Part shown: piece after piece, positions 47,223 through 51,126 of the stretch
How positions within the stretch are numbered: the stretch's first letter is position 1
Layout: each line of letters begins with the position of its first letter
Source of the DNA: Cirrosporium novae-zelandiae
Taxonomy: Eukaryota
Assembly: GCA_026023565.1 (NCBI GenBank)
Contig: JAPETS010000016.1
Span: 310,001-374,000 of the forward strand
Direction: 5' to 3'
Length of the DNA: 64,000 nucleotides
The notes under the pieces: generated by a model
Told to the model about the DNA's origin: nothing
The model's input: the letters and a program-made list of their open reading frames with translations, nothing else
Databases searched by the model: none
Position numbers and translations under genes: made by a program

Positions 47223-48451
47223 ATGGCGGAAGCACTCTGCGGACCTGCGAATCCATTACAGACCTTTCAGAAACAGTCAAATGCCGACCGATCATTGCAG
47301 CAAGATCATTTGATATCCCGTCATTCATCCACTGCAGTATGGCTGTCTTCTAACCTATCATACTTTCTACTCGCTGATTTAGAGAAATGTAGGGCTTCCG
47401 CTCTCCAAACCAGAATGCTGGCATTCTAGACCCTGAATTCGAAGCCTTCCAAGTCGGATTCTCTGTCGGCCCATCTCACTCAGAATTACAGCCGTTGAAT
47501 AGAGAAGCGCAATTATTCCCTCATACTCCACTATCGCAGCCAGGCCCATCATGGGCTTCCGACTTTCAGCAGCTTCAGATTTCTGAATCGCATTCCTCAA
47601 TACCGCAATCCCGCATACACCCCAAGGCACCAATACAACAAAATGCTCCTGGGGGGTGGTCTCAGGACTTTCTTGGACAACAGTCGCATTCTCATACACC
47701 TCCACAACAACTGCGAACTCCTCAGCTCCCCACTTATGCGCCACACGTGGGGATGCAGGGATGGCATAGCTCATTTCTACAAGGTGGGATGGGAGCCGGA
47801 CCCGAAGTCTGGAATGCGGAGCAAGCGTCGTCCCAGAAACAGCCAGAACAAGTGTTTGATGAGAAGGCGTTCGAGAAGGCTTTTGTGGATGCGCGGAATG
47901 ATATGCTCTGGCAAGAGTTGGGGGAAGATGTCCAGGTCAATCAGCCGGTCGAGAATCAGGTGCCGGAACAAGATCTAAGCCATTTGGCGGAACAGGGGCC
48001 AGTTGGTGCCGATGCCATTCTACACAGTGAAAGCCAGGGAGAAAATATAGCTCATGATGACGGCGATGATCTAGCAAGGACGGCTGGTCAGCTTTTGGAT
48101 AGTGTAAAACATGATCAGAGCCAGAAATTTCAGCAAAGCAACTTTCTAGCACTGATGCGACGGCTACGGGACAAAGAAGTGAAGGTTGAAGGAGATGACT
48201 TCCGAGAGGTGAGCAGTAACTTAATCTACTAATTTTTGTATTCGGGATGAAGGTCTGTGCGAAGGTATGATTGTTCGGAAGACTAATGCAAGACATAGAC
48301 GGTACAACCACTCCATCCCGGTGGACTCGACTACCCAGATCGTCGGTACTCAGAGATAACAGAAATGACGGGGGCAATCAGTGGGGAAGATATCAGTAAG
48401 TTGAACGATAATGTCGAAGGTGGATCGATGGGGGAGATACAAGACTTATAA
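47223..48451 (+). CDS. PEX20: PTS2 co-receptor peroxin Pex20, 3 exons
   Basis: N-terminal conserved Cys (MAEALCGPANPL), three WxxxF motifs (WASDF, WSQDF, WHSSF) and the Pex7-binding box KFQQSNFLALMRRLRD. No TPR domain, so it is not Pex5. Confidence 0.85.
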
Positions 48452-49401
48452 AGTACAGATCAACCGACAGTATGACTCTCGAAGCAAACACGCTCCCCGA
48501 ACCTACTAGGGTCATCTGATATGTCTTTGGATTTCCCATGCAATACTGATGCAGCCATTTCGAAGGAAGATGATGGTTATGATAATAGCAGAGGCAGGGT
48601 TCATCACCAAGTATTATATTCTTCAGGATGCTTTTTCAGAAAAGAGTTTGAAAAGCAAGGCTTGTCTTAGCTTCACCACCATAAAAAAAAAGTGGACGAA
48701 TAATGCAATGTTGTTGGGGTGACTGTCTAGGGATGTATTACAAGGGGTACTACATGTACTTTTGTATCTAGGAAGTCTCATCAGACGGATGTATGATATA
48801 GCGAAGTACAGTGGAGGGCAGATGACTTGTTTGGTCTGTGAAGTATTCCAGGGTATTCAGGCACATGTCAAACGGGCTCAGGGATTGCTGTACTCAGGAT
48901 TGACGTATTGGATTGGCGTCATGAGTCAGTTTGGTGTAGTTTGTAACTTGAAGATTGCCAGTAATGAAGTATTTAAATAATGATTTAATATTTCCTTTCT
49001 TTTCCACTCATCCTCTCGTCCTTCTTGCCAAGCTTGTTGGGCCCCTGGCTAGCGTCCCTTCCGGTATGAGCTTATTGAGAGCCTCTCCCTATTAGACCCC
49101 ATACTGTTCCATACCATCCAGGTGATCCCTTCCATTCTTTGGATTTTGGGCCATCAGCGGCTAACCAACTTCTCCAACCTCAAACAAGTCCCCGACCTGG
49201 AAATATCAATTCTTCCAACCTCCCAGTCCTTGGACGAACCCTCAATTGTCATCAACGCTGCTGTCAAGATTATTTTATTCTTCTGATAAATTAGATCATT
49301 GAATTGCTTTTCTAATCCAACCCGCCTCCACTCTAATTGACTACTGTCTCTACATGCTTACTTACCGCATCATTCAAATCAGCCATCACTAAATCACCAT
49401 C

Positions 49402-51126
49402 ACGTTGTCGGACCCACGAGCTTCAGAGGATCGCTCGCCCGCCACGGCGTTGACGCCTCCATTTCAGACCCCTCTCACGGCGGACGACGACCTCTCCTAC
49501 ACTGCTCCACCCCCTGGTTCTCCCACTTTCGAGCCTTCTCCATCTCGAGCATCTTCTCCAAGACCCCCGCCCTTCTCCTCCCTCTACTTCCCACCTGATA
49601 CCGACCACGCCCATTTTAAATATTCCGTTACCGAATCTTGCCCCATAAATCTCGCGGCAGCATTCGCGCCTGCTCCGCCTTTCGAAGAAGCTACAGGAGC
49701 ATCATCAATCGCCTCACAGACAATCGCAGAAACAAAGGCAGCATTACCGTCAGATAATAAGGGGGAGCAATCAAGCAAAGCTGCAGAAGATTCGGAGCCT
49801 CCACCACCATACACAGAGGGGTCGAGTCCGTTAGATTCGTTTTCATATCTAATGGCGGCCGCTGGAGGAGCGGCAAGCATTATCACACAGGTCCAACAAG
49901 GCGCCGCGCCACCTCTTAACACTTTAACAGGTAAATCAATCCTCCTACAACTAGAGAAATTTTATTTCTAAAGTTTGTAATGTACCTGGCTGAAGACTTC
50001 AATTGAGGCTAATACAACGTATAGATGTTGGATCTGAAGAGCAGGTTACACTCGATCTTCGGTAGTATCTCCTAGTGATAAGTTTTCACCCTGTATTTGC
50101 TAACTCTATTTATTGTAGGGGTACCAGGTTCACATTATCGCGGGATGAGTTGCTGACCTTGCCGGAATTTGTCCTGCTTTCTCTCTTTCCGAATGGCCTA
50201 CTTCCGGATGGTCATATGAACAACTCCTTCCACGAGGGAGATGTATATCCAGTCGACGTACGTTCATCTCGAGCCATAATCAATGGCTTATCTAACCCTA
50301 ACCTATATCTAAGTTATTTAACGTATGAATCTGAACAGTATGACCCTGCCTCTCTCCAATATATGTTAGAGTTCTTCCGTGCTGTTGCACAGTCGATACC
50401 ATCATCTTCCCCTTCGCCTACAACTTCCACTGAACCGGAGGCTATTCCCATCGAGCCAATGCCTGGATCTGCACGGGATATGCTCCAGGATAAGGCTGGA
50501 ATAATCGTGCTGAGGGAAGACCTCGATTTCTATGTTATACCACCAAAAGGAGACATTGAAGCGACGGAAATGATAGAAGTAAAAAGAGCAGCGGGACGAG
50601 CATTGCAAAAGCAAGATGGCATATTTTCTGGCCTGAGAAGGAGTGAAGAGAGTGGCACAACAGAACAACATCTAATTGAGATGCTTACAGCTGGGTAACT
50701 ACCCTATTCATCTCCCTCTAGTTTTTTATTGGTATGGCCATTAACGCCTTACATTTCCAGTGGCTTTAATCACGATGATCGCTGGGGACATCGTGCCGGT
50801 GAACCAAATAAGGCTGTTATCTGTAGTCTCGCACTCGCTCGCCTACGAACCGACCTCAAGGGCACCGATCTTGCAAGCACCAATGCAGTTGGAATGGCAC
50901 AGAAACTGCTATTATTCTGGAGGAAACCTGCCCGGCGTTGTTGGTGGGAAGGAGTTGAACTTGATCATGTTGAAGGCGTGGAGGGTAAATTAAAGATTTG
51001 GATACGAAGAGTGTGGACTCTAGAGATGGTAAGTTGCGAATATATTTCTTAATGGTGCTATTCGCAAATTTCAAATTTCACGGCTAACAATGGATGTATA
51101 AACAGAGTGTGATAGGATTACGATGA
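49402..51126 (+). CDS. WHI2: Whi2 (BTB-like stress/growth regulator). First AUG is at 49852, with a probable ACG-initiated N-terminal extension from 49402
   Basis: LDLRGTRFTLSRDELLTLPEFVLLSLFPNG, IIVLREDLDFY, EQHLIEML, WGHRAGEP, LLLFWRKPARRCWW and IRRVWTLEMSVIG. The frame is open from 49393. Confidence 0.88.

Follow-up and report, generated by a model that had tools for sequence, protein, structure and literature searches.

The gene described here lies on the plus strand of a 64,000-nt stretch of the Cirrosporium novae-zelandiae genome (assembly GCA_026023565.1, contig JAPETS010000016.1, positions 310,001 to 374,000 of the forward strand), which is called the window below and is numbered from its first letter. 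By full-length similarity to proteins named Whi2, the gene is an orthologue of Whi2, known as WHI-2 in Neurospora crassa. A frame of 149 codons without any AUG precedes its first AUG and is, on comparison with related sequences, protein-coding and conserved across Pezizomycotina. From these comparisons we consider it likely that WHI2 is translated by leaky scanning from two starts, giving a 448-aa long form from UUG 49405 and a 299-aa short form from AUG 49852. The features of the gene are given in Table 1.

Conservation of the WHI2 extension as protein

The frame of WHI2 exon 1 is closed upstream by an in-frame TAA (49390-49392) and then stays open from 49393 to 49971; the two other frames of this stretch contain three and four stops. 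The first-pass annotation of the window, made from its letters without database searches, had pointed to this stop, to the open frame and to the lack of an ATG in any frame up to ATG 49852. It had also pointed to an ACG with A at -3 (ATC ACG) and to the motifs PPPF and EPPPPY. All of these are present in the window.

The 179-aa translation of exon 1 matched 423 proteins at E ≤ 0.01 from Eurotiomycetes, Lecanoromycetes, Leotiomycetes, Dothideomycetes and other groups, the best foreign matches having E values of 1e-43 to 1e-28 and coverage of 92-99%. Two further queries, one Colletotrichum-like (L040) and one Sordariales-like (P0201), recovered the same N-terminal arm across Sordariomycetes, including Sordaria macrospora and S. 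brevicollis. A search of 232 of the matching proteins for the N. crassa WHI-2 peptide found nothing; from the sister genus Sordaria we infer that N. crassa has the extension. In an alignment of 23 sequences (alignment A1), PPPFSSL, TK and E-PPP-x-Y-x-EG-x-SP are invariant, and so is a block M-A-x-AGG..S-I-x-TQV that runs across the AUG. The conserved short motifs of the arm are PPPFSSLY, ETKAALPxDxK and PPxY.

DNA relatives were collected in one scan of metagenome contigs, which gave 80 loci. The main ATG was found in 71 of them, in one case at the very end of the contig, and the other nine were cut before it. The frame is open upstream of the main ATG in all 70 loci with upstream sequence, over 42-257 codons. 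An in-frame ATG upstream of the main start was found only in the diverged locus L058, which is discussed below, and in three near-identical loci (L030, L031 and L033), where it is located about 100 codons 5′ of the conserved start in unconserved sequence that also contains out-of-frame ATGs. PPxY was detected by regular expression in 60 of the 80 loci, and near variants (APPPY, QPPPPY) occur in most of 11 extra loci. Judged from these loci, PPxY is the best-conserved element of the arm and is kept in nearly all relatives.

In 58 non-redundant sequences including the window, the extension contained no in-frame stop, compared with 82 stops in the +1 frame and 216 in the +2 frame. The pairwise Nei-Gojobori ratio of nonsynonymous to synonymous rates (dN/dS) had a median of 0.26 and a range of 0.05-0.56 (190 pairs with 0.1<dS<1.5), as estimated on a codon alignment guided by the protein alignment, which flatters coding. 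Differences at codon positions 1, 2 and 3 numbered 78722, 65372 and 128098, respectively. Such coding constraint implies that the extension is translated. The claim of the first-pass annotation that it looks like protein is in agreement with this conserved coding and with the strong conservation of PPxY. The same annotation had proposed that WHI2 upstream regions be compared across Pezizomycotina, and an open frame, a dN/dS below 1, AUG depletion and a conserved near-cognate codon were all found in that comparison.

The 450 nt could also be an untranslated, AUG-free leader conserved for reasons at the RNA level. A long AUG-free leader alone would account for the depletion of ATG described below, and the N. 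crassa blot in PMC4184795 (cited here, like the other articles given by PMC number, from the excerpts available) reports the short size only. A leader of this kind is nevertheless extremely unlikely in view of a reading frame free of stops where the two other frames have 82 and 216, the dN/dS of ~0.26, and third-position differences that are about twice those at the second position. Peptide motifs are kept across classes while the nucleotides diverge, and conservation is unbroken across the AUG. No unusual RNA folding was detected near the start: the segment 49396-49500 gave z = -1.35, with 19 of 200 shuffles folding equally well, and showed no sign of a start-enhancing hairpin.

Depletion of AUG in the extension

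No ATG occurs in any frame from 49357 to 49851 of the window. The base composition predicts 4.4 in 459 nt, and 0.9% of 20,000 mononucleotide shuffles of the window stretch were without ATG. For the 58 non-redundant sequences, the last ≤360 nt before the main ATG were examined, amounting to 20,241 nt in total. They contained 4 ATGs in any frame, compared with 84.9±7.5 expected from dinucleotide shuffles, the lowest shuffle having 68. The extension had 0.20 ATG per kb. Over the 360 nt that precede the closing stop the density was 14.9 per kb, and in the downstream coding sequence (CDS) of six mRNA-like contigs it was 24.2 per kb. Met was found once in 6747 extension codons versus 50 times in 1788 downstream codons. 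The depletion of AUG is beyond chance once the relatives are added. The first-pass annotation had regarded freedom from AUG in all frames as the signature of leaky scanning, and this property is shared by the relatives.

The near-absence of AUG in all three frames, Met codons included, is needed only if many ribosomes scan on, which argues for two isoforms. If only the long isoform were made and ATG 49852 encoded an internal Met, then Met and out-of-frame ATGs should be tolerated in the extension, at odds with the one Met in 6747 codons and the 4 ATGs found where 85 were expected. The N. crassa product of ~32 kDa also speaks against it (PMC4184795). In favour of the internal-Met alternative, the most conserved block surrounds this residue, which may have a structural role; we consider the alternative very unlikely.

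The probable start codon

Peptide conservation begins at the motif x-T-L-S, which is I-T-L-S in the window. Of 43 loci, 33 had TTG in the aligned Leu column and one had CTG; the others were misaligned or lost. At three further conserved Leu positions, these sequences used TTG in 0/46, 0/56 and 0/49 cases. The start region of 17 loci was inspected by eye. The homologous codon was TTG in seven of them (L012, L034, L063, L004, L029, L073 and L005), GTG in five (L010, L071, L048, L070 and L074) and CTG in two (L019 and L038), and in L018, L037 and L072 the TTG of the second motif takes the place of the start. All 17 loci have a purine at -3. With the by-eye cases included, an NTG start candidate was present in 51 of 52 evaluable loci; L058 had none, and six loci were cut by the contig end. 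The second TTG (window 49450) is the only one after the upstream stop in some Chaetothyriales-like loci. Switching between Leu and Val with NTG kept is as expected of a start codon and not of an amino-acid position.

A side observation concerns the conserved Leu columns within the extension, where TTG was used in 0/151 and CTG in 1/151 cases. This may reflect avoidance of internal near-cognate starts or plain codon bias.

The nucleotides around the 33 aligned TTG codons were compared. Position -4 was C in 33/33, though the codon to which it belongs encodes I, G, N, S, V or T. Position -3 was A in 31 and G in 2, and -2 was C in 30, while -1 was free (G14, C12, A7). On the other side of the codon, +4 was T in 30, +5 was C in 33 and +6 was a purine in 33. 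The proposed UUG 49405 of the window lies in the same context, with C at -4, A at -3, C at -2, U at +4 and C at +5. A fixed third codon position together with varying first and second positions indicates a context constraint at the nucleotide level, not at the protein level. The CACN-NTG pattern around the conserved TTG resembles what we take to be the fungal Kozak consensus. As far as these alignments go, the nucleotide constraint extends to +6, and it fits no context rule that we can name here.

The Ser codon that follows the putative UUG was always TCR in the 33 loci (TCG in 22 and TCA in 11), and never TCC, TCT or AGY.

The first-pass annotation had taken ACG 49402 as the start. A near-cognate codon in favourable context at the 5′ edge of conservation was confirmed, whereas the conserved codon turned out to be the adjacent TTG 49405: the triplet before TTG is ACG in only 14/33 loci (the window and 13 others) and ACC or ACA in 19/33. 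Because the context of C at -4 and A at -3 is set relative to TTG, ACG 49402 corresponds to the -3 to -1 triplet of the conserved start. On this alignment, the conserved start is probably UUG 49405 rather than ACG 49402, and the ACG may contribute in this species, with ACG-UUG acting as a tandem pair.

A stronger role for ACG 49402 would be that the extension is translated mainly from it in this species, TTG being merely the second codon. In Neurospora reporters, ACG initiates no less efficiently than UUG. In the window the ACG has A at -3 and C at -4, and an ACG directly precedes TTG in the 14 loci mentioned. Adjacent near-cognate pairs are used elsewhere, as in the ACG-AUU pair of Cryptococcus LeuRS (PMC7049704). 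We nonetheless consider initiation mainly at ACG unlikely. Apart from ACC or ACA in the 19 loci, the codon at the ACG position is GCA/GCG or AAA/AAG in other loci, none of which is near-cognate. The following codon is TTG, GTG or CTG almost everywhere, and the conserved C at -4 and A at -3 fit TTG.

The main AUG had been described as having a weak context. This holds for the window itself, which has C at -3 (CTA ATG G), but not for the relatives, in which a purine was found at -3 in 44/58 and G at +4 in 56/58.

Search for an upstream AUG exon and public gene models

Six contigs (L001, L002, L003, L005, L009 and L040), in which the whole short-isoform open reading frame (ORF) is intronless, were taken as spliced mRNA. 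The extension frame is closed by an in-frame stop in five of them, and the sixth is cut at the contig edge. Over 9 to 340 nt upstream of the open frame, five mRNA-like contigs contained only upstream ORFs (uORFs) of 2-8 codons and no AUG feeding the frame. No coding AUG exon was thus seen in the six contigs, as the first-pass annotation had supposed.

In the window there is no AG between TAA 49390 and TTG 49405, so that no acceptor can bypass the stop. A 5′ untranslated region (5′UTR) intron had been suggested further upstream. The sequence contains its proposed ends, GTATGA at 49064 and CAG at 49380-82, and the putative intron would measure 319 nt versus 57-94 nt for the introns in the WHI2 CDS. 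This intron (49064-49382) is irrelevant to the argument because TAA 49390 would remain. Comparison of cDNA-like with genomic relatives by blastn resolved no leader intron.

Two candidate explanations were rejected. The short frame of L005 is not a splice variant, as it is due to a 1-nt homopolymer indel relative to L003 and L068. Readthrough of the stop from the in-frame uORF (ATG 49354 to the TAA) was discarded, since in-frame upstream AUGs before the stop are not conserved in relatives.

The WHI2 model derived here has five GT-AG introns of 57-94 nt each and no internal stop. It was compared with the public model P0001 (783 aa, 99% identical protein, from a metagenome-assembled genome of the same organism, a member of Xylobotryomycetes in Pezizomycotina), and 440 of 448 C-terminal residues were identical. 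P0001 joins an upstream peroxin-20-like gene to the WHI2 extension by an intron of ~1030 nt with an acceptor near 49426. This intron is implausible, and we regard the fusion in P0001 as wrong. Similar models are frequent in the database. Among the matches listed, models longer than 700 aa accounted for 44/120 with the window exon-1 query, for 53/112 in a second list and for 97/232 together. The fusion partners of long models vary by lineage and include DPP3, a G-patch protein, an ABC ATPase, peroxin 20 and a kinase. Stand-alone models have unrelated N-termini or are flagged 'partial', as in many JGI models. The discordance of these models is the behaviour of gene callers on a long conserved ORF without ATG.

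It was also observed that stand-alone Whi2 proteins of 450-580 aa (P0004, P0005, P0008, P0125, P0127, P0136 and others) carry the names 'dipeptidyl-peptidase III', 'peroxin 20' and 'G-patch domain protein'. These wrong names were apparently inherited from models that fuse WHI2 to its upstream neighbour, so that an annotation error has been propagated.

P0001, with its acceptor near 49426, and the many public models that take an AUG from upstream exons would be explained if the extension began at an ordinary AUG in an upstream exon or were fused to the upstream gene. We find this highly improbable. The fused partner differs between lineages, and the invented N-termini share no similarity. Conservation of both peptide and nucleotides starts at TTG, upstream of the P0001 acceptor, and the P0001 intron of ~1030 nt contrasts with the 57-94 nt of real WHI2 introns. 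Moreover, 5/6 mRNA-like leaders pass through an in-frame stop without an in-frame AUG.

Identity of the gene and known biology of Whi2

Whi2 belongs to the KCTD-related regulators of the general stress response and of TORC1. Relatives with 70-79% identity over the whole protein bear the source names 'general stress response protein Whi2' and 'WHI2-like protein P4H10.16c'. In the Sordaria proteins there is a peptide similar to one that PMC4184795 quotes from N. crassa WHI-2. A Pfam search (E ≤ 0.1) with P0003, P0001 and exon 1 returned no family and no BTB match. A PDB sequence search gave nothing beyond a chance match to enolase (E = 0.94), and the ESM Atlas search gave no usable match. For N. 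crassa WHI-2, a BTB domain is asserted and a length of 297 aa is given in PMC6987382. A complex of Whi2 with the Psr1/CSP-6 phosphatase has been reported in N. crassa and Magnaporthe oryzae (PMC5800702, PMC8295519). WHI2 is under study in Neurospora (cell fusion, clock output) and in Magnaporthe and Colletotrichum (infection, TOR).

Proposed translation of two isoforms

In the proposed mechanism, one WHI2 mRNA would carry two starts. Scanning ribosomes would first reach UUG 49405 in the Kozak-like context C-A-C-N-UUG-U-C, and a fraction of them would initiate there, possibly also at ACG 49402, to produce the 448-aa long isoform. The extra 149 residues of this isoform would form a disordered Pro/Ser-rich arm with conserved short motifs. 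The remaining ribosomes would scan ~445 nt that selection would keep free of AUG in every frame, and would then start at AUG 49852 to produce the short isoform of 299 aa, putatively of BTB type, which corresponds to the Neurospora annotation. Both initiation at UUG and the ratio of the isoforms we infer from sequence comparison. The AUG-started short form exists, according to the description of a 297-aa protein in N. crassa and to the size of HA-WHI-2, which was expressed from its own promoter and ran 'very close' to the predicted 32.2 kDa (PMC4184795).

Several points weigh against translation from two starts. The dN/dS estimate leans towards coding through its protein-guided alignment. UUG is a weak initiator in Neurospora reporters. 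In the diverged locus L058 the frame measures 75 codons and no NTG start can be recognised; an in-frame AUG precedes the main AUG by 25 codons and lies shortly before the PPxY of this locus. The arm of P0063, a diverged second copy from Helicocarpus griseus, contains a Met, and its PPxY has degenerated to PPLSY. Structure prediction with AlphaFold2 on alignment A1 (23 sequences) gave low confidence overall, with a mean predicted local distance difference test (pLDDT) score of 48 and values below 50 in the arm; the arm is probably disordered, a view that this prediction supports weakly. When expressed with ~1.5 kb of its own upstream sequence, HA-WHI-2 was reported to have about the size of the short form only (PMC4184795), and a Pccg-1-driven whi-2-gfp, described for the 297-aa protein, complemented the N. 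crassa knockout (PMC6987382). According to the blot and the complementation, the long form may be a minor product, may be made only under certain conditions, or may not be needed for those phenotypes.

The other database proteins that appeared to have a Met in the extension were rejected, since they were regular-expression matches in fused upstream genes or exons; only P0063 was real. A silver-stained WHI-2 band is mentioned 'below' the ~70-kDa CSP-6 cluster, without a size, in PMC5800702.

Judged by its motif class, PPxY may recruit a WW-domain ubiquitin ligase of the Rsp5/HulA type. The first-pass annotation had suggested that the long form would act as a ubiquitin-ligase adaptor controlled by start-codon stringency. 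No literature was found that links Whi2 to a PY motif, or to Rsp5 as adaptor or substrate. A further proposal, which we put forward as speculative and rather doubtful, is that the long isoform, Whi2-L, might be a translationally gated adaptor. At the cell periphery, its PPxY arm would bring an Rsp5/HulA-type ligase to the Whi2-Psr1/CSP-6 phosphatase complex. Start stringency (eIF1/eIF5, stress) would set the proportion of long to short form, and with it whether Whi2 acts as a phosphatase scaffold or as a ubiquitin adaptor in cell fusion and in nutrient/TORC1 signalling. If this is true, published functional studies in filamentous fungi that used the AUG-started form missed a ubiquitin-adaptor layer.

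Comparison with known systems

Conserved non-AUG N-terminal extensions with experimentally shown initiation are known for cpc-1 (CPC1) of N. crassa (Ivanov et al. 2017, PMC5487733). Both WHI2 and cpc-1 have a Pezizomycotina-wide extension of the frame of a regulator upstream of the annotated AUG, with a conserved near-cognate codon in good context and alternative N-termini. In cpc-1, long inhibitory AUG uORFs overlap the extension and there are several candidate start codons. WHI2 differs in that its spacer is AUG-free in all frames and that there is essentially one conserved NTG, with a second 15 codons on; this is a classic leaky-scanning layout, recognized in WHI2 from sequence alone.

The human BTB protein KCTD11 has been reported to substitute for yeast Whi2 in TORC1 control, and its long form starts from AUU (Correale et al. 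2011, reviewed in PMC6566181). As in WHI2, it was long annotated from the first AUG, and an upstream non-AUG start adds in-frame residues. The KCTD11 extension comprises 39 residues and completes the BTB fold, whereas that of WHI2 comprises 149 residues, lies wholly upstream of the presumed BTB region, looks disordered and contains linear motifs. In sequence the two extensions are unrelated, and the parallel is probably convergent.

Yeast ALA1 (ACG-ACG), GRS1 and HFA1 each yield an additional isoform from a single mRNA, initiated at a near-cognate codon that precedes the first AUG. The tandem near-cognate codons of ALA1 resemble the ACG-UUG of WHI2. The extensions of ALA1, GRS1 and HFA1 are mitochondrial presequences, unlike that of WHI2, which is acidic (pI 4.3) and Pro/Ser-rich, bears a PY motif and does not resemble a presequence. 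Adaptors and substrates of Rsp5/Nedd4-family ligases that use PPxY include arrestin-related proteins, Bul1 and Bsd2. The WHI2 arm is similar to these PY adaptors in having a conserved PPxY, here seen in sequence, within a probably disordered arm of a protein of the cell periphery, endocytosis or nutrient signalling.

No description of a non-AUG extension of Whi2 was found in the literature; a search for Whi2 and non-AUG led only to a review of KCTD proteins (PMC6566181, excerpts). Whi2 was not named in the titles or abstract openings of the papers found on non-AUG initiation in Pezizomycotina. A term search of the available text of PMC7049704 and PMC7498311 gave no mention of Whi2 or NCU10518, and the 'whi' passages of PMC5487733 do not mention the gene. 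Non-AUG extensions are an established kind, of which Whi2 would be a new case, strongly supported by the sequences compared.

If this reading is true, the conserved 149-residue arm with its PY motif would be a missing functional part of Whi2. Translation from two starts would also explain an annotation problem, namely that Whi2 models are fused to whichever gene lies upstream. The locus would be a very clean comparative example of dual starts, with a near-cognate codon, an AUG-free spacer and an AUG, and in filamentous fungi it could be used as a natural read-out of how stringently start codons are selected.

Features of the locus

Table 1. Coordinates of WHI2 and neighbouring features in the window.
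Feature	Position	Strand	Remarks
WHI2 coding region (derived model, putative UUG start)	join(49405..49930, 50025..50061, 50119..50257, 50339..50694, 50761..51028, 51106..51126), overall 49405..51126	+	long form 448 aa, 48.6 kDa; short form 299 aa, 33.0 kDa
Short uORF, 9 codons + TAG, main-ORF frame	49066..49095	+	in the leader only if transcription starts upstream
Short uORF, 12 codons + TAA, extension frame	49354..49392	+	its TAA (49390-49392) is the 5′ in-frame closure of the extension frame
Start-site context CAUC-ACG-UUG-UCG	49398..49410	+	holds ACG 49402-04 and UUG 49405-07
Second conserved in-frame TTG, motif P-x-T-A-L (ACG GCG TTG, G at -3)	49450..49452	+	15 codons downstream of the first
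AUG-free N-terminal extension (putative), 149 codons	49405..49851	+	Pro/Ser/Ala-rich, acidic, 15.6 kDa, pI 4.3
PPPF, inside conserved block SPRPPPFSSLYFP	49564..49575	+	PPPFSSL invariant in 23/23 sequences of A1
PPPPY, a PPxY (PY) motif, inside block EPPPPYTEGSSPL	49798..49812 (EPPPPY 49795-49812)	+	E-P-P-P-x-Y invariant in 23/23 sequences of A1, x = P or A
Main AUG, the first one met on scanning, from which the short isoform (299 aa) starts	49852..49854	+	invariant Met in block SFTY[VL]-M-AAAGGAASIITQVQQ
Upstream neighbour, separate gene, peroxin-20-like (named only via fused homologues)	47393..48411	+	end at TAA ~48409-48411, read by eye

A pyrimidine-rich tract, ttcctttcttttccactcatcctctcgtccttcttgcc, is located at 48990-49060, upstream of the leader, and resembles a fungal core-promoter or transcription start site region. 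If this tract is used as the start site region, the leader carries two short in-frame uORFs, at 49066 and 49354.

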